A stretch of DNA of 64,000 nt from Escherichia phage LYE-01. The stretch is from the sequence record PQ303785.1. The stretch is one strand, 5' to 3'. The notes under the pieces were generated by a model. That model had not been told where the DNA came from. It was given only the letters and a program-made list of their open reading frames with translations, and did not search any database. The translations under genes were made by a program, and so were the position numbers. Positions 3,779 to 38,497 of this stretch are shown piece after piece. Each line of letters begins with the position of its first letter. Position 1 is the stretch's first letter.

Positions 3779-4282
3779 ATGGATTTACAGCTTATTACTA
3801 CTGAAATGGTCGTTGAAGCATATGGTGATACTACAGATGGGATTTCTGTATTTAAAGGAAATCGTCGAGTTGGATATATCACCGATCTTAAGAAAGATTT
3901 AGCTAAGCAAGTTAAGCGGAAAACGACCATCAAAGAATATCGAAATCGTCGTCTTGAGCAAGCCCGTGATATGCTTCCTGATGCAGTTGAGGAGATGAAA
4001 GTCTTTTTAGAAAATCAGCTTGCGAAATATGATTGTGAAGTATTCATTAATCAGACTCAACCTAATGTTCATATTAATAACTGTAAATGCTACATCATTG
4101 TTAATCCTTTGACAGAAAAGCATCGTCTTGGAATTAGTAATCCAAATCGTAGCGCATCAGATATGGCAGAAGATGTTGAGGCATGCTTTAAAATTTCTAA
4201 ATCTCCAGCTGAACATCATATTTTAATTAACGGTCTTTCTCAAGACGATATTGTAGAGGTTATTAAAACTTTATGCATGTAA
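3779..4282 (+). CDS. alc: Alc, inhibitor of host transcription, 167 aa
   Basis: Track ORF 3776..4282 begins MM; second ATG gives 167 aa as in T4; position between rnlA and pseT. Confidence 0.75.
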   Translation: MDLQLITTEMVVEAYGDTTDGISVFKGNRRVGYITDLKKDLAKQVKRKTTIKEYRNRRLEQARDMLPDAVEEMKVFLENQLAKYDCEVFINQTQPNVHINNCKCYIIVNPLTEKHRLGISNPNRSASDMAEDVEACFKISKSPAEHHILINGLSQDDIVEVIKTLCM

Positions 4283-4626
4283 GTAATTTTACAGCTGGAT
4301 TGCTATTACTTGTAATAGCATTTGGCGGAACATCTATTATTTTAAAAAATAAGGTAGAAAGATTAGAAACATCGGTTACTGAAATTACAAAAACGGCCAA
4401 TGAAAACGCTTTAGCATTAGATAATTTGCGAATTCAGTATAATTATATTGATGCGATGAATAATAAAAATCGTGAGGCAATTGCTGCTATTGAGCGTGAA
4501 AATGAAAAACTGCGCAAAGATGCAAAGAAGGCGGATGTGGTGGCTCATAAGCCAGGATTGGTTGAAAAACAAATCAACAACTCCTTCAACAAGTTCGCAG
4601 AAGACATCCAGGACCTTTCTAAATGA
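4273..4626 (+). CDS. Small membrane protein (N-terminal TM helix plus coiled-coil), 117 aa
   Basis: Track ORF; hydrophobic stretch AGLLLLVIAFGGTSIIL; start overlaps alc stop. Confidence 0.55.
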   Translation: MHVSNFTAGLLLLVIAFGGTSIILKNKVERLETSVTEITKTANENALALDNLRIQYNYIDAMNNKNREAIAAIERENEKLRKDAKKADVVAHKPGLVEKQINNSFNKFAEDIQDLSK

Positions 4627-4922
4627 TTAAACTATCGGCAGTAATATTATCTATTGGTCTTCTAGTTGGTTGTTCGACAAAGCCTCTAGAAGTAAAGAAA
4701 GAAACAGTTCATCCTAATTGGCCTGTGCAAATAAAGTCATATGATGAAGCTAAACTATCTTGGCAAGTTAAAGTCATTGATGGTAAAGCTTGGGTCGGTA
4801 TGCCATTTGAAGATTCCCAGGAATTTCGTATTTGGCTTAATGATGTAAAACGATATGTACATGACCAAAAAACTATGATATGTTATTATCGTCAAGAGCT
4901 AAAAGAGGATAAATGTAAATGA
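4623..4922 (+). CDS. Predicted lipoprotein, 99 aa
   Basis: Track ORF; signal peptide with lipobox LVGC (MIKLSAVILSIGLLVGCS); ATGA overlap with upstream ORF. Confidence 0.55.
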   Translation: MIKLSAVILSIGLLVGCSTKPLEVKKETVHPNWPVQIKSYDEAKLSWQVKVIDGKAWVGMPFEDSQEFRIWLNDVKRYVHDQKTMICYYRQELKEDKCK

Positions 4923-5145
4923 TTTCATGGCATCAATTTGAACATCTCAAAGGATTGATTTATGAATCTGAGATGGCTGCAATGATTTATGGACGCCAGA
5001 TTCAACGATTAGAATCTTTGCCTCCAACTAATGATGTTTTATTAGCTCAATCACGTGCTAATCTCAAAAATGAATACCAAAATAAGTGGGGTAAAGCATC
5101 TAAAGACCTGCATGATTATATTCAATCATTAGTTGAGAAAAATAA

Positions 5146-5149
<4 letters not shown>
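4919..5149 (+). CDS. Hypothetical protein, 76 aa
   Basis: Track ORF; translationally coupled (ATGA overlap) in alc-pseT accessory cluster. Confidence 0.5.
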
Positions 5150-6370
<1,221 letters not shown>

Positions 6371-13419: not shown

Positions 13420-13688
13420 TGTTTGTTGTTCATACTATTTATGAAAATGAAGGTAATACTACACGTGATTACGGTCACGTAAATCAATTTTTTAGATGCA
13501 ATCCAGAATTCCGTGCTCAAAAAGACGAACGAATTTTTAAAAAATGTGTAGAACAAGGTTTCATTTACGTCAAGCACTGGATGCAAGGAAATAAAGTTAG
13601 AACTACATATCATAGGTCTTTGCCTGAGCTTAATGATGAATTGATTTATAATAGAGCTGTAAACCAAACCTTGAAGGATGAGCAATGA
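13419..13688 (+). CDS. Hypothetical protein, 89 aa
   Basis: Track ORF; mirror ORF on minus strand judged spurious. Confidence 0.45.
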   Translation: MFVVHTIYENEGNTTRDYGHVNQFFRCNPEFRAQKDERIFKKCVEQGFIYVKHWMQGNKVRTTYHRSLPELNDELIYNRAVNQTLKDEQ

Positions 13689-15145
13689 TTCTTAAAATTC
13701 TGAATGAAATAGCATCTATTGGATCAACTAAGCAGAAGCAAGCAATTCTTGAAAAGAATAAAGATAATGAATTGCTTAAACGAGTATATCGTCTGACTTA
13801 TTCTCGTGGGTTACAGTATTATATCAAGAAATGGCCTAAGCCTGGTATTGCTACCCAGAGTTTTGGAATGCTGACTATTACCGATATGCTTGACTTCATT
13901 GAATTCACGTTAGCTACTCGGAAATTGACTGGAAATGCAGCAATTGAGGAATTAACTGGATATATCACTGATGGTAAAAAGGATGATGTTGAAGTTTTGC
14001 GTCGGGTTATGATGCGAGACCTTGAATGCGGTGCTTCAGTATCTATTGCAAACAAAGTTTGGCCAGGTTTAATTCCTGAACAACCTCAAATGCTGGCAAG
14101 TTCTTATGATGAAAAAGGCATTAGTAAGAATATCAAGTTTCCAGCCTTTGCGCAGTTAAAAGCAGATGGAGCTCGGTGTTTTGCTGAAGTCCGAGGCGAT
14201 GAATTAGATGATGTTCGTCTTTTATCGCGAGCTGGTAATGAATATCTAGGATTAGATCTTCTTAAGGAAGAGTTAATCAAAATGACTGCTGAAGCCCGCC
14301 AGATTCATCCAGAAGGTGTGTTAATTGATGGCGAATTGGTATACCATGAGCAAGTTGAAAAGGAACCAGAAGGCCTAGATTTTCTTTTTGATGCTCCTGA
14401 AATCAGTAAAGCTAAAGAGTTTGCCGAAGTAGCTGAATCTCGTACTGCTTCTAATGGAATCGCTAATAAATCTTTAAAGGGAACTATTTCAGAAAAAGAA
14501 GCCCAATGTATGAAGTTTCAGGTCTGGGATTATGTTCCGTTGGTAGAAATATACGGTCTTCCGGCGTTTCGTTTAAAATATGATGTACGTTTTTCTAAAC
14601 TAGAACAAATGACATCAGGATATGATAAAGTAATTTTAATTGAAAACCAAGTAGTAAATAACCTAGATGAAGCTAAGGTAATTTATAAAAAATATATTGA
14701 CCAAGGTCTTGAAGGTATTATTCTCAAAAATACCGATGGATTGTGGGAAAATGCTCGTTCAAAAAATCTCTATAAATTTAAAGAAGTAATTGATGTTGAT
14801 TTAAAAATTGTAGGAATTTATCCTCACCGTAAAGACCCTACTAAAGCGGGTGGATTTATTCTTGAATCAGAGTGTGGAAAAATTAAAGTAAATGCTGGTT
14901 CAGGCTTAAAAGATAAAGCCGGTGTAAAATCACATGAACTTGACCGTACTCGCATTATGGAAAACCAAAATTATTATATTGGAAAAATTCTAGAGTGCGA
15001 ATGCAATGGTTGGTTAAAATCTGATGGTCGCACTGATTACGTTAAATTATTTCTTCCAATTGCGATTCGTTTACGTGAAGATAAAACTAAAGCTAATACA
15101 TTCGAGGATGTATTTGGTGATTTTCATGAGGTAACTGGTTTATGA
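13685..15145 (+). CDS. 30: ATP-dependent DNA ligase, 486 aa
   Basis: Track ORF; adenylation motif KADG (AQLKADGARC); sequence matches recalled T4 DNA ligase. Confidence 0.9.
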   Translation: MILKILNEIASIGSTKQKQAILEKNKDNELLKRVYRLTYSRGLQYYIKKWPKPGIATQSFGMLTITDMLDFIEFTLATRKLTGNAAIEELTGYITDGKKDDVEVLRRVMMRDLECGASVSIANKVWPGLIPEQPQMLASSYDEKGISKNIKFPAFAQLKADGARCFAEVRGDELDDVRLLSRAGNEYLGLDLLKEELIKMTAEARQIHPEGVLIDGELVYHEQVEKEPEGLDFLFDAPEISKAKEFAEVAESRTASNGIANKSLKGTISEKEAQCMKFQVWDYVPLVEIYGLPAFRLKYDVRFSKLEQMTSGYDKVILIENQVVNNLDEAKVIYKKYIDQGLEGIILKNTDGLWENARSKNLYKFKEVIDVDLKIVGIYPHRKDPTKAGGFILESECGKIKVNAGSGLKDKAGVKSHELDRTRIMENQNYYIGKILECECNGWLKSDGRTDYVKLFLPIAIRLREDKTKANTFEDVFGDFHEVTGL

Positions 15146-15330
15146 AAGCTTACTTAGAAACAATTGTCGTGGCTCAAAAAGAAGGTGGAGATGTTTCTAC
15201 TTCGGTATCACAAGTCATTCTCGAATTTGTAGATGCATATGCTTATAATAAATTTACAGAAACATTTGATGCCTACGAAAAAGGTCCAAAGTTTGAAATA
15301 TATCGTACTCTCTTACCACTAGATTATTAA
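15142..15330 (+). CDS. Hypothetical protein, 62 aa
   Basis: Track ORF overlapping ligase stop. Confidence 0.4.
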   Translation: MKAYLETIVVAQKEGGDVSTSVSQVILEFVDAYAYNKFTETFDAYEKGPKFEIYRTLLPLDY

Positions 15331-15345
15331 AGGCCTTCGGGCCTT
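15330..15345 (+). terminator. Hairpin AAGGCC-TTCG-GGCCTT
   Basis: UUCG tetraloop hairpin between the 62-aa ORF and alt. Confidence 0.5.
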
Positions 15346-15351
15346 TAATTT

Positions 15352-15359
15352 TATAAATA
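15352..15359 (+). promoter_or_regulatory. T4 late promoter TATAAATA upstream of alt
   Basis: Exact TATAAATA about 25 nt upstream of ATG, followed by GAGAGGA RBS. Confidence 0.55.
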
Positions 15360-15382
15360 GAATAAACACTAGAGAGGATATG

Positions 15383-17476
15383 ATGGAACTCATTACAGAA
15401 TTATTTGACGAAGATACTACTCTTCCGATTACAAACTTAAATCCAAAGAAGAAAATACCACAAATTTTTTCAGTTCATGTTGATGATGCAATTGAACAAC
15501 CAGGCTTTCGTTTATGTACCTATACATCTGGAGGTGATACTAATCGCGATTTAAAAATGGGCGATAAAATGATGCATATTGTTCCTTTTACATTAACTGC
15601 TAAAGGTTCAATTGCTAAATTAAAAGGTCTCGGTCCAAGTCCAATTAATTACATCAATTCAGTTTTTACTGTTGCAATGCAGACGATGCGTCAGTATAAA
15701 ATTGATGCCTGTATGCTTCGTATTCTTAAGTCTAAAACTGCTGGTCAAGCTCGACAAATTCAAGTTATTGCTGATAGACTTATCCGTAGTCGTTCAGGTG
15801 GCAGATACGTCCTTCTTAAGGAACTCTGGGATTACGATAAAAAGTACGCATATATTCTTATACATCGCAAAAATGTATCACTAGAAGACATTCCAGGAGT
15901 TCCGGAAATTAGTACCGAGCTTTTTACTAAAGTCGAATCGAAGGTCGGCGATGTTTATATCAATAAAGATACTGGAGCTCAAGTAACTAAAAATGAAGCA
16001 ATTGCAGCATCTATTGCGCAAGAAAATGATAAACGTTCTGACCAAGCTGTAATCGTTAAAGTTAAAATTTCCCGTAGAGCAATTGCGCAAAGTCAATCAT
16101 TAGAATCTTCTAGATTTGAAAGCGAATTATTCCAGAAGTATGAATCTACCGCAGCCAATTTTAATAAGCCTGCTACTGCTCCTTTAATTCCAGAAGCAGA
16201 AGAAATGAAGCTTGGAATTAATTCATTAGCTTCTAAAACTAAGGCAGCAAAAATCATTGCCGAAGGAACCGCAGATGAACTTCACTATGACTATAAATTC
16301 TTTTCAAAAAGTGAGGTTAATGAAGTTTCTGAAAAAATTAAAGATGTAATTCTTAATGCGATTAAAAATGAACCAACTACTTCAATAAAATGTTTAGAGA
16401 AATACGCAGCAGCTGTTAATCAATTCTTTGAAGAATATAAAGATAATTGGCTTGATAAACATAATAAAACTCGTAAAGGACAGCCAGATGAAGTCTGGGA
16501 AGAAATAACTAAAAATTCCTGGAACGCAGCAAAAACTAAATTCCTCAAACGAATGATTTATAGCTTTTCTGGAATTGGTGCAGGTCCAATGATTGATATT
16601 ACCATTGCCCGTGATGGTTCTAAATACACTCCATCGCAAAAGCGCGGAATTAGAGAGTATTGCGGATCAGGATATACTGACATCAATAATCTTCTTTTAG
16701 GCCGCTACAATCCAGAACGATATGATGTAATGAGTGAAAAAGAAATTGAATCTGCGATAAATAATTTAGATTCAGCTTTTGAAAATGGTGACCGTATACC
16801 AGAAGGCATTACAGTTTATCGTGCTCAAAGTATGACTGCTCCTATATATGAAGCACTAGTTAAAAATAAAGTGTTCTATTTCAGAAATTTTGTATCTACT
16901 TCTTTAACTCCTATCATTTTTGGACGTTTTGGAATTACACATGCTGGTATCGGTCTTTTAGAACCAGAAGCTCGCAATGAATTAACAGTTGATAAAAATG
17001 AAGAAGGAATAACTATTAATCCAAACGAAATAAGAGCGTATAAAGAAAATCCTGAATACGTTAAAGTTCAAATAGGATGGGCTATTGATGGAGCTCATAA
17101 AGTTAATGTTGTATATCCAGGAAGTCTCGGAATAGCAACAGAAGCTGAAGTTATTCTACCACGCGGATTGATGGTCAAAGTTAATAAAATAACTGATGCT
17201 TCTAATAATGATGGAACAACATCTAATAATACAAAACTCATTCAAGCTGAAGTTATGACTACGGAAGAACTCACCGAATCGGTAATTTATGACGGTGACC
17301 GTCTAATGGAAACTGGTGAATTGGTTGCAATGACAGATGATATTGAAATAGAAGACAGAGTTGACTTTGCATCATTTGTTTCATCAAATGTTAAACAGAA
17401 AGCAGAATCATCTCTCGGAATTATTGCGTCTTGCATAGATATTACAAACATGCCTTACAAGTTCGTTCAAGGATAA
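15383..17476 (+). CDS. alt: Alt-type ADP-ribosyltransferase (packaged internal head protein), about 697 aa
   Basis: Track ORF 15380..17476 (MM start); N-terminus MELITELFDE; R-S-E ART motifs (YRAQ, FVSTSL, EAEVILPRG). Confidence 0.8.
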   Translation: MELITELFDEDTTLPITNLNPKKKIPQIFSVHVDDAIEQPGFRLCTYTSGGDTNRDLKMGDKMMHIVPFTLTAKGSIAKLKGLGPSPINYINSVFTVAMQTMRQYKIDACMLRILKSKTAGQARQIQVIADRLIRSRSGGRYVLLKELWDYDKKYAYILIHRKNVSLEDIPGVPEISTELFTKVESKVGDVYINKDTGAQVTKNEAIAASIAQENDKRSDQAVIVKVKISRRAIAQSQSLESSRFESELFQKYESTAANFNKPATAPLIPEAEEMKLGINSLASKTKAAKIIAEGTADELHYDYKFFSKSEVNEVSEKIKDVILNAIKNEPTTSIKCLEKYAAAVNQFFEEYKDNWLDKHNKTRKGQPDEVWEEITKNSWNAAKTKFLKRMIYSFSGIGAGPMIDITIARDGSKYTPSQKRGIREYCGSGYTDINNLLLGRYNPERYDVMSEKEIESAINNLDSAFENGDRIPEGITVYRAQSMTAPIYEALVKNKVFYFRNFVSTSLTPIIFGRFGITHAGIGLLEPEARNELTVDKNEEGITINPNEIRAYKENPEYVKVQIGWAIDGAHKVNVVYPGSLGIATEAEVILPRGLMVKVNKITDASNNDGTTSNNTKLIQAEVMTTEELTESVIYDGDRLMETGELVAMTDDIEIEDRVDFASFVSSNVKQKAESSLGIIASCIDITNMPYKFVQG

Positions 17477-17479
17477 ATC

Positions 17480-19537
17480 ATGGAACTTATTACAGAATTA
17501 TTTGACGGCGCTTCGGCGCCGGTTGTTAACTTAAATCCTAAGCATAAAATACCTCAAATTTTTGCTATTCAAGCAGGCGAAGAAAGCGTGCTTCCTGGAT
17601 TTAGATTTTGTACATACACCTCTGGCGGTGATACAAATAAAAACGTTAAGCCAGGCGATAAAATGATGCATATCGTAATGATAGGTGTCAATGAGAAACT
17701 ATCATTAGTTAAACTTAGAAACTTGGGTGGAAATCCAATTGGTGTCATTAATGCGGTTTTTGATACTGCTCTTCAGACAATGAAACAATACAAAATTGAC
17801 GCATGCTTATTCCGCGTACTAAAGAGTAAAACAAATGGTGCAGCTCGTCAAATGCAAGTTATTGCCGACCGTTTAGTACGTACTAAAGGAGCAGGTCGAT
17901 ATGTTCTTTTAAAGGAAATCTGGGATTACGATAAAAAGTACGCATATATTATGGTTTACCGTAAAAATGCTAATTTAGAAGACATTCCAGGTGTACCTCC
18001 TATTTCAACTGAGTTATTCACAAAAGTTGAATCAAAGGTTGGTGATGTTTATGTAGATGTTAAAACAGGTAATGCTGTTCCTAAAGCTGTTGCTGTTGCT
18101 GCTTCTATTGCTTTAGAAAATGATAAGCGCACGGATCAAGCTGTTATTCAGAAAACTAAAATTAGTCGTCGGTTAGCAGCACAAGCTCAATATTCTACTG
18201 TCGATGCTTCACTTCAGGGTGATAGCTTCGCTGCTAAGAAATATCAAGAGTTTGAATCTAAAGTTCCGGTATATAAAGCAGAAGGACCAATGAACTCTGG
18301 CGTTATTCAGGTTGGTTCAAACTTCAGCAAAGGAGCTATCGGTGGTATGAGAAGTGCTTCCCGTTTTAAATCTAGTGATTATGAATTAGAAAGCTTCCGA
18401 AATCATATTGCATTGGCTCATGCGCGTTTACGTGATCCATCTATCAAGTTACAGAGCGATATATCATATCAAGGTTCTCAAGAATATTTAAAGAATAAAG
18501 AATTTTTTGATTATAAAACTGATAAAATTTTAAGTGATCTTGCTGACATTAATATTTCTAATAGCTTTGATGTTATTAAGAAAATTGTCAATGATTTAGT
18601 TAAAGGTTCTAAAGCCACACCAGATGAAAAGGTAGCTATTGTTCAATTTGTCATGAATGGCGTTTATAAATTGATTAATGAGTCTGCTTCTCAAGCGTAT
18701 GAATATGCAAGTACTGAAGTAACTCCAAAAGGATTAACTCAGGCTGAGTCTGATGTAATTGAAGATTATTGTGCAGATTCATATGTTGAAATGAACTCGT
18801 TCCTTTTAGGTAAACCGGATTCTACTCGTGAAGAATACATGGAACGAGCTATTAAACACATCGAGACAATGGATTCTGCCTTTGCCAAAGGATCAGTTCT
18901 TCCTCCAGGAACTACACTTTACCGTGGACAAGAAGTTACCTTTAAAACTTTACGTCATAATATTGAAAATAAAATGTTCTACTTCAAGAACTTCGTATCC
19001 ACATCGCTTAAACCAAATATCTTCGGTGAGTATGGTAAAAACTATATGGCTCTAGATGATTCCGGCGCAGTATTTTCTGGTGAAGGAGAAGGTTCAGTTG
19101 ACGCAGAAGATTTGATGCATATGGGCAGTCACTCTGCTTATGCGAATGAAGATGCTGAAACTAGCGTGGGTATGGTAATTAAAGGAGCTGAGCGAATCAA
19201 AGTTATCGTTCCAGGACATTTATCAGGATTTCCATCAGAAGCTGAAGTTATTTTACCGCGTGGAATTTTGCTGAAGATTAATAAAGTGAGTACGTACATG
19301 ATGAAAGAAACTGCTTATAATAAGTATCTAATCGAAGGCACAATCGTTCCTCCTTCTGAACAATTAGAAGAATCGGTATATGATGGCGACCATCTAATGG
19401 AAACTGGTGAAGTTCGTCCAATGGCTGGATTTAATCAATTCCTTGTAGAAGAATCAAAAGAAGAGGAAAACGAAGTTTCTCAAATCTTGGCTTCTTTGGT
19501 TAACATCAACGGAATGTCTAAAAAGTTCAAGATGTAG
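17480..19537 (+). CDS. Second Alt-like ADP-ribosyltransferase paralog, 685 aa
   Basis: Track ORF; same N-terminal MELITELFD leader and conserved blocks (CTYTSGGDTN, KYAYI, GVP, ISTELFTKVESKVGDVY); ART motifs retained (YRGQ, FVSTSL, EAEVILPRG); central region diverged. Confidence 0.75.
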   Translation: MELITELFDGASAPVVNLNPKHKIPQIFAIQAGEESVLPGFRFCTYTSGGDTNKNVKPGDKMMHIVMIGVNEKLSLVKLRNLGGNPIGVINAVFDTALQTMKQYKIDACLFRVLKSKTNGAARQMQVIADRLVRTKGAGRYVLLKEIWDYDKKYAYIMVYRKNANLEDIPGVPPISTELFTKVESKVGDVYVDVKTGNAVPKAVAVAASIALENDKRTDQAVIQKTKISRRLAAQAQYSTVDASLQGDSFAAKKYQEFESKVPVYKAEGPMNSGVIQVGSNFSKGAIGGMRSASRFKSSDYELESFRNHIALAHARLRDPSIKLQSDISYQGSQEYLKNKEFFDYKTDKILSDLADINISNSFDVIKKIVNDLVKGSKATPDEKVAIVQFVMNGVYKLINESASQAYEYASTEVTPKGLTQAESDVIEDYCADSYVEMNSFLLGKPDSTREEYMERAIKHIETMDSAFAKGSVLPPGTTLYRGQEVTFKTLRHNIENKMFYFKNFVSTSLKPNIFGEYGKNYMALDDSGAVFSGEGEGSVDAEDLMHMGSHSAYANEDAETSVGMVIKGAERIKVIVPGHLSGFPSEAEVILPRGILLKINKVSTYMMKETAYNKYLIEGTIVPPSEQLEESVYDGDHLMETGEVRPMAGFNQFLVEESKEEENEVSQILASLVNINGMSKKFKM

Positions 19538-19590
19538 TTTACAAGTCACTCGTGTTGTGTTATAATAATCTTACTGACATAACATGAGGA
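19537..19590 (+). promoter_or_regulatory. Early promoter (GTTTAC -35, 18-nt spacer, TGTTATAAT extended -10) plus conserved leader; copy 2 of duplicated cassette
   Basis: About 93 percent identical to 3718..3771; here the -10 is consensus TATAAT. Confidence 0.5.
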
Positions 19591-19597
19591 ACACAAA

Positions 19598-19888
19598 ATG
19601 AAATCTTCTTTGCGCTTTTTAGGTCAAGAACTCGTAGTTGAAGGCGTTATTCCTGCTGATAACGCTTTTAATGAAGCGGTTTACGACGAATTTATCAAAA
19701 TTTTTGGAACAGATAAAAAGTTCGGAATTTTTCCTTCTGAAAATTTTTCAAAGCCAGAACAGACTGAAAGCATTTTCCAAGGTGTAGTAACAGGTAAATT
19801 TGAGTCAGAAGCTCCGGTAAAAATTGAAGTTTATATTGAAGACAGTTTAGTTGCTTCAGTTGCTGCTTTTATTTCATTCCGTAAATAA
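19598..19888 (+). CDS. Hypothetical protein, 96 aa
   Basis: Track ORF; GAGGA RBS 7 nt upstream. Confidence 0.55.
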   Translation: MKSSLRFLGQELVVEGVIPADNAFNEAVYDEFIKIFGTDKKFGIFPSENFSKPEQTESIFQGVVTGKFESEAPVKIEVYIEDSLVASVAAFISFRK

Positions 19889-19892
19889 AAAT

Positions 19893-19914
19893 ATGGGGAC
19901 CTTTCGGTCCCCAT
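19893..19914. terminator. Bidirectional terminator hairpin ATGGGGACC-TTTC-GGTCCCCAT between convergent genes
   Basis: 9-bp stem read from sequence between plus-strand ORF end and gene 54 end. Confidence 0.6.
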
Positions 19915-19916
19915 TG

Positions 19917-20882
19917 TTATATTGCTCCTAATATTTTACTTTGCGAATTGACAATTCCTGTCATAGTATTAATGTTTGAAATGCTTCCTGCAGTTCCTCC
20001 TAATCTACTAAGTCGTGAAAGCGAATTAGATAGTCCAGTAACACCTCCACTATTTCCGAGAACGCTTTGAATACCGTTTATAGCAGCAGATTCAAGCCAT
20101 TCAAGAGCAGCTTGTCTATCAACCGCTCCAGCCTGCATGACTCTATACGCAAAAGTAACATCAAATGTAGTTATTTGGTTATCTCCATCGTATGATAACT
20201 CAGGAGCGCTCACTGACACTGGAATGCATCCAGTGAACATCACCGCAGTATGAGGCAATCCATTGCGAGCATGAAGATTAACTTGAATATCTGCTTCAAC
20301 ATCTTGTGGTAAAGCACGTAATCCAGTTACTGGGTCTTGAACAGCGTTAACCCAGTCTTGCATCGCACGATAATTACACGACTCTGAATCCATTCTAAAT
20401 GAAATAACCAAAGGGTCTAATTCTCTTCCGGTTATGCGAATATTAGGAGAATTATAGTTCCAGTCAGTTTCATAGGATAATCTATTCTCTGGCATTTTTA
20501 CGGAGTATATCATCAATCCAGATGAGTTATATGCCATGTTAAAGAAGTCAATTAAATATGTACCAACTGTAAATGAGCCTAATAAACTTTGAACTGTACG
20601 TTGACTCATGGCACCAATAAGATATTTACTAACCCCTGATTTTCTTATCAGTTTTTGTGTGCCAGCAGTAATTAGCGTAGTAATTCCCTGATTAATATCG
20701 CCTTGAGTTAATCCTAACCAATCTGAATTTAGGCCCAAGTTATTATAAGAAAAGTTGCTAATTGAACTTATCAACGAAGAGCTTTTAGTTGATGGAGTTG
20801 TCGCAAAAACGCAGCTAAACATATTATTACGTTGGAAATCTGCGTTTATTGCTTGATTATTAAATTCCTCTAAAGAATACAT
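19917..20882 (-). CDS. 54: Baseplate tail-tube initiator, 321 aa
   Basis: Track ORF; length and order 54-48-29-28-27-51 as in T4. Confidence 0.85.
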   Translation of the reverse strand: MYSLEEFNNQAINADFQRNNMFSCVFATTPSTKSSSLISSISNFSYNNLGLNSDWLGLTQGDINQGITTLITAGTQKLIRKSGVSKYLIGAMSQRTVQSLLGSFTVGTYLIDFFNMAYNSSGLMIYSVKMPENRLSYETDWNYNSPNIRITGRELDPLVISFRMDSESCNYRAMQDWVNAVQDPVTGLRALPQDVEADIQVNLHARNGLPHTAVMFTGCIPVSVSAPELSYDGDNQITTFDVTFAYRVMQAGAVDRQAALEWLESAAINGIQSVLGNSGGVTGLSNSLSRLSRLGGTAGSISNINTMTGIVNSQSKILGAI

Positions 20883-21976
20883 TAAAAAGTCCCCGCATAT
20901 AAAGAAGCACGGTTTAACGTGATAATTTCTCTCATAGTAATCTCAAGAGTAAATGTACTAGGGAGGTTTGGAGCAATAGCTAATCCGTTAAAGTTACCAT
21001 TAGGTGTTTTATCAAATCTGATGCTCTGTATTTGGCATGGGCCAAATATTTCCGTTTTTCCATCAAACTTAGATGTTGCACCAAAGTTTTTCACCATCCA
21101 AATTGTCGGGTTTGAAACTACTAGAACGTTAGTTAAACTCGATGTCATTTTCTCAAATAGTGTTTTATTTTTAGCTGCGTCTTCCGGAGATAAAGGTTCA
21201 ATTAACGTAGAACGATACCAATCATCTAAATACCCCTTTATTTCAGCAGCATATTGAGATTTGCCCGTTTCACCATAAGAAAAATAGTTAAAATATTGAT
21301 AGATATTAATAATAGCCATTAAATCTTCTGTGGAACGTGGAGTCAAATCCCATGTAAACACTTTAGTTCTATTTTCAGCGCCGCCATACATACTTCTGGC
21401 TGTCGTATAAATCTGTTCATTATTATCAGCCATTATACCTTGTGTTATACTTTCCAGTGCTCCAAATACTGCAGTTGAAGCAATATTACTTAGCACACCA
21501 GTAGCAGTACCTCCGCCTCTGCTGATAAGACTTTCTTGAACATCATTAAATCTATGTGATGATGTATCAACATCGGATTTAGATCTTGGTAAAAGAATAT
21601 TTGCAACAGGGGCTTTACTTATTGTTCCTGAATTATTATCTGATATTAATCCATTTGACAGTTTTGATACTGTATTACTGATAGTGTTTCTGGCTGTACG
21701 TAAAATACTCGAAGATGAAGAAGAGTAGTTAGATCTCATCGATCTAAGACTTCCAGAATCCCTAGATGACATATTGTACGCAGTAAATAATAATCCATTC
21801 TTATATAGATCTGTTACCTGGAAGTCCCCTGTAGTGTCATTACCACTAGCACGCCCAGTTGGAAACTGGGCAGTGTATGTTTTAGTTGCTACTTCTGATT
21901 TAGTACTCTGTCCGGCTGAAATTTTCTCACCGGACTTTTTAATTAAATCAGCAGTTATTTCTTTAACAATTGCCAT
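20882..21976 (-). CDS. 48: Baseplate tail-tube cap, 364 aa
   Basis: Track ORF; TAATG stop/start overlap with gene 54. Confidence 0.85.
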   Translation of the reverse strand: MAIVKEITADLIKKSGEKISAGQSTKSEVATKTYTAQFPTGRASGNDTTGDFQVTDLYKNGLLFTAYNMSSRDSGSLRSMRSNYSSSSSSILRTARNTISNTVSKLSNGLISDNNSGTISKAPVANILLPRSKSDVDTSSHRFNDVQESLISRGGGTATGVLSNIASTAVFGALESITQGIMADNNEQIYTTARSMYGGAENRTKVFTWDLTPRSTEDLMAIINIYQYFNYFSYGETGKSQYAAEIKGYLDDWYRSTLIEPLSPEDAAKNKTLFEKMTSSLTNVLVVSNPTIWMVKNFGATSKFDGKTEIFGPCQIQSIRFDKTPNGNFNGLAIAPNLPSTFTLEITMREIITLNRASLYAGTF

Positions 21977-36390: not shown

Positions 36391-37200
36391 TTAGAAACGA
36401 GATGCGACTTTCGCATATACACTTACAATATCTTCTGCACCAGGTGCAGCTTTATCTTCTACAGCTTCAGTGACGAAATTCAGTCCGGCTGCTTCAGTAT
36501 CAGGAGTATTTATACCCTCAGTAATAGTGCTTTCATCTTTATTAGACTTCTTCACCATTTCTACGATGGCACTCAATTTATTTGAGAATTCATCTGAATA
36601 ATCCATACCTTCGACCAGAGCAGAGACTTTTTCTTTTTGAGACTCAGTCAGATCTTTAGTACTTTCGCTCAATGCCACTTCACGCTGCACATAATTGATA
36701 TATGCGTCGCGCATATTGAGTTCTTCGAACAGACGAGCTGATTCTTCTTTATGTTCTTGCAGCTCTTCTTCCATTTCAGCCACAACATCAACTGATTCTT
36801 CTGGAACAACAACGTTGTGTTCAACAAAGAGCTCTTTTAATCCACCAAGCATGGATTCAAACAGTTCGGCTTTGATGCCTTTATCAACTGCTAATTTATT
36901 TTCAGCGAGCCATTCTTTCGCAAGATGGTCGATGAATTTAGAAGCTTGCTCAGCGATTTTCTTCTCAGCTTTTTCTTCGGCTTCTTCTTTATTTTTTTCT
37001 ACTTCTTCTTCTGCTTTTTCAGCAATTTTAGCGATATGAGATTCAGCTAATTTAACGGCGTGCTGCTTGACGGTAGCTTCGAATACAGTGCCGAAAGTTT
37101 CTTTTGCTTCCGGAGAAATATTAACTGATTCGAAAATACTATCAAGAGCAACGGAAGCATCAATTTTTTGCGCTTCAGCAATCAGTTGTTCTTTAAGCAT
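36391..37200 (-). CDS. 22: Prohead core scaffold protein, 269 aa
   Basis: Track ORF; acidic coiled-coil-rich; length equals T4 gp22. Confidence 0.85.
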   Translation of the reverse strand: MLKEQLIAEAQKIDASVALDSIFESVNISPEAKETFGTVFEATVKQHAVKLAESHIAKIAEKAEEEVEKNKEEAEEKAEKKIAEQASKFIDHLAKEWLAENKLAVDKGIKAELFESMLGGLKELFVEHNVVVPEESVDVVAEMEEELQEHKEESARLFEELNMRDAYINYVQREVALSESTKDLTESQKEKVSALVEGMDYSDEFSNKLSAIVEMVKKSNKDESTITEGINTPDTEAAGLNFVTEAVEDKAAPGAEDIVSVYAKVASRF

Positions 37201-37227: not shown

Positions 37228-37235
37228 TATTTATA
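37228..37235 (-). promoter_or_regulatory. Late promoter TATAAATA for gene 22, overlapping gene 21 stop
   Basis: Plus-strand TATTTATA about 28 nt upstream of ATG. Confidence 0.5.
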
Positions 37236-37869
37236 ACGCTTTTTTCATGGCCTCTGCGAGAGCCATATAGGCGTCATCGGCACTTGTATCGGCTTCCGCC
37301 GTCTGTGATTCGGTAATTTCCTTAGGAGTTACCCATGCATCTGGAGCACTTGGACCCCATACTGCATCAACACCTACAGTTAATTTGAATCCTTCGTTTA
37401 CGATACGATAACCTTTATTTGTGTCAGTCAATGAACCTAATCCACGAGAAGAAACTCCTGGAATCCATCCGGCACGAATATTAGCTGCTAATTTATCTCC
37501 AGGACCGTGGTCACCTTCAATAACACGAGCTCGTCCGTATACGTCATTTCCTTTCCACCACATATCTTCTATAATGATAGCGGCTTGCATCGGGTCAACA
37601 TTAGCGCGTGGAGGATGATTTAATTCTCCGAGAGCTTGTTTAGTTAAAACTTGCTCATTAATATAGTCTTTTACCGCTTTTTCTAATATGCGTTTTGGAT
37701 AAAGACGTTTATTTCTATTGACGACTTCTGCTTGCATGAATATTCCTTCGATGTATAAACCCGGTTTTAAACCTAAGTCTTTTCCATCGTGGGATTCAAG
37801 CATTGGCACACCATCAATAATTTCGCCAGGTTGACCCCAAGTTTCAATTAGTAATTGGGGTTCATTCAT
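37231..37869 (-). CDS. 21: Prohead protease, 212 aa
   Basis: Track ORF; length equals T4 gp21. Confidence 0.88.
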   Translation of the reverse strand: MNEPQLLIETWGQPGEIIDGVPMLESHDGKDLGLKPGLYIEGIFMQAEVVNRNKRLYPKRILEKAVKDYINEQVLTKQALGELNHPPRANVDPMQAAIIIEDMWWKGNDVYGRARVIEGDHGPGDKLAANIRAGWIPGVSSRGLGSLTDTNKGYRIVNEGFKLTVGVDAVWGPSAPDAWVTPKEITESQTAEADTSADDAYMALAEAMKKAL

Positions 37870-38294
37870 TAGCTTAATCCTAATGCTTTACGGCGTTTAA
37901 GAGCTTTTTTACGCTTACGCTGAGCACGAGATTGACCTGCTGGATTGGCAATCTTCGTTTTGGTAGCTTTGCGAGCAATTTGTCTACGTTTTGCTTTAGA
38001 CAGCCCAGTGGTTTGAAATGCATTACGTTCGCGTGTTTTGCGGTCTTTAGTACGTGTAATTTCACCACGAGCTGAAACGTGCTTAACAATGAATTCATTT
38101 AACGGCATATTTTCATTAATAGAAGCTAATGCAACTGCTAAATCAGTTTCATCATCAAGCATATTCTCGACAATTGTATTTATATCGTCTTTATTTAAAG
38201 CAGAAGACAATTCGTCAAAGCGACCCTGTGCTTCAGGAATAAGTGCTTCGACATTCTCGAGAACTAATTCATGAGTTTCAGGGATCAGAAGCAT
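37869..38294 (-). CDS. 68: Prohead core protein, 141 aa
   Basis: Track ORF; length equals T4 gp68. Confidence 0.75.
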
Positions 38295-38496
38295 TATTCA
38301 TCATCCTCGTCTTCGTCATCACCATCTTCGTCATCCTCGTCGTCTTCAGGTTCTTCACCTTCGATTAAGAAATTACGAGCGATAGCGATTTTTTCTTCTT
38401 TAATTAAATCAATCGTTCTTGCAGCCATGGCTTCAGCAAATAATTTACGAGCGGCTACGAGGTCGTTTGATTTAATAGCTTCAATTAAACCTTCCA

Positions 38497-38497
<1 letters not shown>
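38294..38497 (-). CDS. 67: Prohead core protein with poly-acidic C-terminus, 67 aa
   Basis: Track ORF; C-terminal [20 protein letters not shown]. Confidence 0.7.

Follow-up and report, generated by a model that had tools for sequence, protein, structure and literature searches.

The alt locus described here lies on the + strand of a 64,000-nucleotide (nt) stretch of Escherichia phage LYE-01 (PQ303785.1), hereafter the window, where six elements stand in a row between gene 30 and the convergent genes 54 and 48. Two of these elements are adjacent genes, which we call altA (15383-17476, + strand; 697 residues, stop codon at 17474-17476) and altB (17480-19537, + strand; 685 residues), and both begin with MELITE. 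For altA there is also an in-frame ATG one codon earlier, at 15380, giving 698 residues that start MMELITE. An initial annotation of the segment 15331-19537 had described a tandem pair of diverged Alt-type ADP-ribosyltransferase (ART) genes, and our analysis fully bears this out: the two proteins are 41% identical over their full length, with a BLASTP E-value of 3e-157 that excludes chance similarity, and both match the PF03496 family (ADPrib_exo_Tox; cutoff 23.4 bits), altA with 129 bits (1.8e-37) and altB with 73.2 bits (2.4e-20). The coordinates, the lengths (697 and 685 residues in the open reading frame list) and the shared MELITELFD leader had also been given correctly. Both proteins match phrog_802 ('Alt-like RNA polymerase ADP-ribosyltransferase') from end to end (altA, 2e-272; altB, 1e-254), and both PF26846 (Tevenvirinae_ADPRT) and PF03496 are recorded for homologs of either paralog; NCBIfam gave no match for altA or altB. 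Moreover, both are homologous to phage T4 Alt over the full length, including the N-domain, and both occupy its position in the genome, from gene 30/alt.1 to alt.-3/gene 54.

The two paralogs share the same modular architecture: a 6-residue N-propeptide (MELITE), a conserved N-domain of about 230 residues corresponding to Pfam Tevenvirinae_ADPRT, a fast-evolving helical middle, an ART domain of the R-S-E type and a C-propeptide of 54-65 residues. In altA, the N-propeptide (1-6) is followed by the N-domain (7-246), the variable helical middle, the ART domain (approximately 378-627) and the C-propeptide after E632; the corresponding regions of altB are 1-6, 7-238, 239-415, 416-631 and 632-685. 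The N-domains (7-238) are 66% identical, the ART domains (416-631) 36% and the C-terminal tails 39%, and identity drops to 17% in the middle (239-415), in agreement with the strongly divergent centre noted in the initial annotation. Synonymous sites are saturated in every region (synonymous divergence, dS, of 0.9-1.5), and therefore the duplication must be old. The ratio of nonsynonymous to synonymous divergence (dN/dS) between the paralogs is about 0.19 in the N-domain, about 0.5 in the ART domain and about 0.9 in the middle. Together, the saturated dS and the low ratio in the N-domain imply that the shared N-terminus reflects constraint and not recent copying. Recent gene conversion was also considered as a source of the similar N-termini and was rejected in this window on account of the saturated dS of about 1.5. 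In other phages, alt copies do recombine with each other. Among the window, PP01, T2 and T6, dN/dS is only 0.02-0.05 for altA and 0.03-0.06 for altB; judged by these comparisons, both genes are under strong purifying selection and have retained function.

The catalytic residues are preserved in both proteins. In altA they are encoded within 16820-17149 (+ strand): R480 (16820-16822), S505-T-S507 (16895-16903) and E587-A-E589 (17141-17149). In altB they fall within 18923-19246 (+ strand): R482 (18923-18925), S507-T-S509 (18998-19006) and E587-A-E589 (19238-19246). In a family alignment of 17 sequences representing both alt lineages (A1), all 17 members have the same residue in the columns of the Arg, the two Ser and the two Glu. 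Thus, the R / S-T-S / E-x-E layout that had been read in both proteins holds on alignment, with neither copy lacking the catalytic Arg or Glu. The NAD-pocket residues Y430, N439, L442 and G444 (altB numbering) are also invariant across the family. The segment immediately preceding ExE differs between the paralogs (HLSGFPSEAE in altA vs SL-GIATEAE in altB). The importance of the motif is known from T4 Alt, in which the E577A mutant is inactive (PMC11404850). There is a one-residue offset in numbering here: ExE in the RefSeq translation of T4 Alt is E574-M-E576, and the dead mutant is named E577A in that paper.

Sequence searches with phmmer against PDB sequences yielded nothing for altB and only weak partial matches to CdtA/iota for altA, and only a family profile brought the catalytic motifs into alignment with a PDB chain. 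With this profile, LYRGQ and EAEVILPRG of altB align with YRG and QYELLLPR of 4xsg, a solved ADP-ribosyltransferase chain of 219 residues. The AlphaFold2 model of altB has a predicted local distance difference test score (pLDDT) of 75.7, the two propeptides being its sole long low-confidence segments. Structure comparison of this model gave 47 PDB matches at E ≤1e-3, and those listed are all ART toxins, namely Vis, Certhrax, CDTa, C3, VIP2 and iota toxins, with E-values from 1e-6 to 1e-3. These PF03496 toxins have the catalytic fold and the motif layout in common with the Alt paralogs, whose Arg and ExE match Arg and QxE of 4xsg, and identity to the paralogs is 13-20%. They differ from the paralogs in lacking the N-domain, the helical middle and the propeptides for the prohead protease gp21, and in being secreted and not virion-delivered. 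By profile and motif order, altA and altB are thus members of the R-S-E ADP-ribosyltransferase family, and for altB the modeled fold leads to the same assignment.

The regulatory signals point to a single transcription unit. A T4-type late promoter, TATAAATA, is read directly in the sequence at 15352-15359 (+ strand), 23 nt upstream of the altA ATG. It is the single match on the + strand of 15331-19537, with no second copy there for altB, just as the initial annotation had stated in assigning one late promoter to the pair. Equally accurate was its statement that altB starts 3 nt past the altA stop (17476 to 17480). A Shine-Dalgarno sequence for altB, AAGGA (17468-17472, + strand), likewise read directly, lies within the 3'-terminal codons of altA and precedes the altB ATG by 7 nt; this placement suggests that translation of altB is coupled to that of altA. 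A site scan found no terminator between the two genes. Since there is neither a second TATAAATA nor an intervening terminator, altA and altB are most likely carried on one late mRNA. Two kinds of other candidate promoters were rejected: GATAAATC at 17471-17478, considered as a late promoter of altB, has two mismatches and abuts the ATG, and the sigma-70-like sites inside the genes number 15 against 18.5 expected from shuffles. Just past the stop codon of alt.1, the gene preceding altA, there is a terminator-like hairpin (15326-15349, + strand) with a 10-bp stem, a 4-nt loop and a U-run; RNA folding gives it a free energy (dG) of -13.5 kcal/mol and a z-score of -3.0 against shuffles. The interval of the initial annotation starts, at 15331, within this hairpin. 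A terminator upstream of alt has been reported to be conserved among T4-like genomes (PMC1524935). The U-run continues straight into TATAAATA, placing early/middle termination and late initiation within about 35 nt (15326-15359).

Nearly all knowledge about Alt comes from T4, and it is against this background that the pair has to be viewed. T4 Alt sits in the prohead core in about 40 copies, is trimmed by gp21 and is injected along with the DNA, its ADP-ribosylation substrates being Arg265 on one of the RNA polymerase alpha subunits and various further host proteins (PMC9026906, PMC2988021). This head-packaged, injected NAD+:arginine mono-ADP-ribosyltransferase (NP_049811) has the same locus, the same position of the late promoter and the same four-part build as found here, and its R/STS/ExE motifs and both gp21 sites are common with altA and altB. 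The first gene, altA, is the positional ortholog of T4 alt and is 70% identical to it overall, residues 1-246 being 100% identical, the middle 28% and the ART domain 63%; over 16190-16618 of the window no nucleotide similarity to T4 is detectable. In other words, the effector half of altA is the T2/T6-type allele and not the T4 allele. The boundary of this mosaic is sharp and falls near residue 246. Modification of RNA polymerase alpha Arg265 is known for the T4 allele only (PMC2988021), and the effector halves of both altA and altB differ from that of T4. In the alignment, the first gene falls into at least three classes of alleles (the T4 type of 682-684 residues, the T2/T6 type of 697 residues and the P0016/P0018 type); there is hardly any such variation in altB, at 95-99% identity.

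The second gene, altB, is 41% identical to T4 Alt overall, and its counterpart in T4 is a remnant. In the T4 reference (NC_000866), alt (682 residues) is followed by alt.-1 (61 residues) and alt.-2 (67 residues), which the record itself annotates as an ancient duplicate of the initial part of alt. Our comparison identifies alt.-1 and alt.-2 (NP_049810, NP_049809) as the 5' remnant of altB, the gene that is intact here. The translated T4 remnant gives the altB N-terminus (MELITELFDGASAPVV...), alt.-1 matching altB residues 1-55 with one substitution up to the frameshift, and the PHROG families of alt.-1 and alt.-2 are matched better by altB (phrog_23015, 2e-40; phrog_15247, 1e-37) than by altA. 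According to blastn of T4 against the window and alignment of the junction, the part of altB missing from T4 corresponds to 17828-19517 (+ strand), about 1.7 kb. T4 keeps the first ~348 nt of the gene, in which a 1-nt deletion in an A-run breaks the frame, and the last ~20 nt; the deletion junction lies at a repeated 9-nt microhomology, CTAAA(A/G)AGT. A 141-nt probe for this T4-type junction is fully covered in 91 of the 498 matching records, and among the 30 records displayed those without full cover match one side only. Full-length altB, by comparison, is found by tblastn at 90% identity or more in about 400 records. Judged by these record counts, T4 is therefore in a derived, minority state.

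The distribution of the locus leaves little room for novelty. The 4.85-kb locus is 98.3% identical to that of Escherichia phage vB_EcoM_NBG2 and matches 543 phage records, 374 of which cover at least 80% of it. By sequence, the genome in the window is a T2/T6-like Tequatrovirus and not T4. T2 (AP018813) and T6 (AP018814) have the same pair of 697 and 685 residues, the T6 proteins being 99% (altA) and 97% (altB) identical to those in the window, and the gene order is the same in T4, T2, T6 and PP01. In T2, T6, PP01, RB27, NBG2 and about 400 other Tequatrovirus records, the gene order and the lengths of the pair are identical to those here and protein identity is 97-99.9%, so that the window pair shows no material difference from the annotated Tequatrovirus pair and is one more member of it. 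RefSeq names both genes 'Alt-like RNA polymerase ADP-ribosyltransferase'. The pair is thus already known, with annotations in hundreds of phage genomes, and contributes little as a discovery: GenBank/RefSeq name it hundreds of times, the T4 record notes the duplicate, and the alt paralogs are discussed in the comparative study of Nolan et al. (2006), where alt.-1/alt.-2 and the full-length alt duplicates of other T4-like phages are listed as paralogous duplications (PMC1524935). The initial annotation had presented a second full-length Alt as unexpected, and this claim fails because the sequence had been taken for T4, while the window is T2/T6-like and carries the standard annotated pair. The comparison with the T4 locus that it had proposed gives a mixed answer: T4 itself holds the decayed remnant alt.-1/alt.-2 in place of the pair, yet the pair is conserved and in that sense not new.

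In addition to the intact pair and the T4 remnant, there is a third state of the locus. In ECML-134 (NC_025449), a single chimeric alt gene (locus L007, 2501-4561) lies between alt.1 and alt.-3 and combines an N-domain of the altA type with a middle, an ART domain and a C-propeptide of the altB type. Relative to the pair in the window, it derives from the same two paralogs and has the same flanking genes, the difference being that there is one gene and the effector half of altA is lost. One high-identity match each to the chimera was found in vB_EcoM_SCS4 and in Yersinia phage PST, and two metagenome contigs also carry it; the coordinates recorded for it outside ECML-134 are 4001-6055 (locus L005) and 4001-6061 (locus L006). 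As the chimera was first met in Logan assemblies, an assembly artefact was considered and rejected: ECML-134 is a complete genome, and its annotated locus shows the single chimeric gene. From the arrangement of the sequences, such a gene is what unequal crossover between the tandem N-domains would be expected to yield.

If both proteins are to reach a new host as T4 Alt does, they should carry the signals for head processing. Mass spectrometry has shown that T4 Alt is cut at ITE-6 and LTE-619, giving a mature protein of 68.2 kDa (PMC5694885), and residues 7-619 indeed compute to 68,245 Da. The first site, ITE-6, is identical in altA and altB. At the second, an LxE-Ser site aligns with LTE-619 of T4 in both paralogs (LTE-632 in altA, LEE-631 in altB). 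E6 and the aligned C-terminal Glu (E632 in altA, E631 in altB) are invariant in 17/17 family members. This comparison of gp21 sites concerns conservation in sequence and not observed cleavage; cut at these positions, the predicted mature products would be 70.1 kDa (altA) and 69.1 kDa (altB). The protease expected to trim both paralogs is encoded in the window by gene 21 (37231-37869, - strand; PF03420 Peptidase_S77, 1.5e-111). Since altB keeps both gp21 sites and is under strong purifying selection, it is most likely packaged and injected, that is, a second enzyme delivered by the virion. The initial annotation had suggested packaging and injection of both proteins from their conserved N-termini; the conserved gp21 sites of T4 Alt strengthen this suggestion. 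We found no report on the function of a second Alt paralog or on its presence in virion proteomes.

Taken as a whole, including packaging and activity, the locus is in all likelihood the normal two-gene alt operon of T2/T6-like Tequatroviruses. According to this model, the late promoter just downstream of the terminator hairpin would drive altA, and altB would be translated from the same late mRNA by way of the Shine-Dalgarno sequence located within the final altA codons. On the pattern of T4 Alt, both products would be taken up into the prohead core, lose the two propeptides to gp21 and remain in the head until ejection together with the DNA; inside the new host, they would then mono-ADP-ribosylate arginines of host proteins, with NAD+ as the substrate. 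The two genes would stem from an old duplication, with T4 later having deleted most of altB. What the analysis shows is that the genes are homologous, with conserved motifs and a predicted ART fold, how they are arranged and distributed, and that they are under purifying selection; co-transcription, packaging, processing, catalytic activity and target differences are inferred. Several points weigh against this model. The presence of altB in virions, as well as its cleavage, activity and injection, is deduced from sequence and analysis, and, with identity between the paralogs of 17% in the middle and 36% in the ART domain, an altB activity equal to that of T4 Alt is an extrapolation. Co-transcription is deduced solely from the lack of another TATAAATA, and late promoters can deviate from the consensus. 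Finally, T4, whose junction is present in about 90 records, manages with no altB, and the effector part of altA is dispensed with in ECML-134, PST and SCS4; hence, neither gene is essential.

What the two enzymes modify is a separate question. Judging from their sequences, it is plausible, as the initial annotation had proposed from the divergent middles, that altA and altB have different targets. We would put forward tentatively, as a possibility short of an even chance, that altB is a second virion-delivered ART with a target set unlike that of Alt, for example a protein of translation, stress response or defence rather than RNA polymerase alpha. The three states of the locus would then alter host takeover or sensitivity to host defences from one T-even phage to another. 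The opposite idea, that altA and altB are redundant, both modifying the main target of T4 Alt (Arg265 of RNA polymerase alpha), and that the pair provides dosage or robustness, appears doubtful to us. It would fit well with the common architecture, arginine-type ExE motif and locus, with the loss of either effector in nature (altB in T4, the effector part of altA in ECML-134) and with the many targets of T4 Alt itself (PMC2988021). However, for plain redundancy it would be unusual that the duplication is old and yet both copies are under strong purifying selection in about 400 genomes, and the low identity in the middle (17%) and the ART domain (36%), together with the different segment before ExE, also speaks against it.

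Two further explanations concern the fate and the activity of altB. Two ARTs of this clade, T4 ModA and ModB, are not packaged (PMC5512222), and nothing in this analysis shows the altB protein in virions; altB could accordingly be made late, be neither packaged nor injected, and act in the producing cell, for instance on host or phage proteins late in infection. We regard this as unlikely, because the MELITE propeptide is retained unchanged in altB, as are the conserved N-domain and the LxE site and tail at the C-terminus, the propeptides being those processed by gp21 in T4 Alt, whereas ModA and ModB lack these features and are early genes. A catalytically dead altB, retained as a structural part of the prohead core, might be considered on the grounds that T4 Alt, besides being an enzyme, has been assigned to the proteins of the head core (PMC11404850) and that the Pfam score of altB, 73 bits, is well below the 129 bits of altA. 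The invariance of R482, S507, S509, E587 and E589 and of the NAD-pocket residues Y430, N439, L442 and G444 across the family, an ART domain that models confidently and matches active toxins, and purifying selection across the whole gene make such a pseudo-enzyme highly improbable.

The significance of the normal two-gene operon lies less in the genes themselves than in the choice of T4 as the model. T4 is exceptional twice: altB is deleted, and the effector half of its Alt is a different allele. From the conservation of the pair, most Tequatroviruses, many phage-therapy candidates among them, probably inject two different ADP-ribosyltransferases. We found no paper reporting an experimental study of altB substrates or of a non-T4 altA allele. 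Were altB indeed to have distinct targets, the model phage T4 would be missing an injected effector employed by most of its relatives. The second enzyme is easy to test in T2 and T6, two tractable phages in which the pair is intact.

The genes around the pair follow the same conserved order. Upstream, the locus is bounded by gene 30, encoding DNA ligase (13685-15145), followed by alt.1 (15142-15330, + strand; 62 residues), which matches PF24647 ('Phage blade protein') at 2e-29. Some GenBank records label alt.1 'siderophore-interacting protein' or 'double-stranded DNA-binding protein'; these two labels look like annotation-transfer errors. Downstream, directly past the altB stop, an early-type sigma-70 promoter is read at 19538-19566 (+ strand; TTTACA, a 17-nt spacer and TGnTATAAT). 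With 11 of 12 consensus matches and an extended -10 element, it is the top site in the scan. It precedes and serves alt.-3 (19598-19888, + strand), which encodes a 96-residue DUF5498 protein (PF17602 at 1.4e-64) and bears the same name in the T4 annotation. The scan found no terminator-like site between altB and alt.-3, and the late altA-altB transcript probably reaches alt.-3 as well. In T4, mutants with C-terminal extensions of Alt.-3 escape the CmdTAC defence system (PMC11618068). Between alt.-3 (+ strand) and gene 54 (- strand) lies a bidirectional terminator hairpin (19893-19914, both strands) with a 9-bp stem containing six GC pairs, where the late alt transcript probably ends. The baseplate genes 54 and 48 (19917-21976, - strand) are convergent to the locus.

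Farther downstream, near gene 21, are the gp22 scaffold gene (36391-37200; T4_CASP, 1e-89), an open reading frame at the gp68 position (37869-38294), which has no Pfam match and is called gp68 by position only, and another at the gp67 position (38294-38497; GP67, 5e-36). No Rfam RNA families were found in the window. Across the whole window, TATAAATA occurs 19 times against 9.2 expected from shuffles, with 14 of the 19 on the - strand; this excess and strand bias fit the late structural block (genes 20-24, 21, 22 and the baseplate genes) which, downstream of the alt locus, takes up most of the window.

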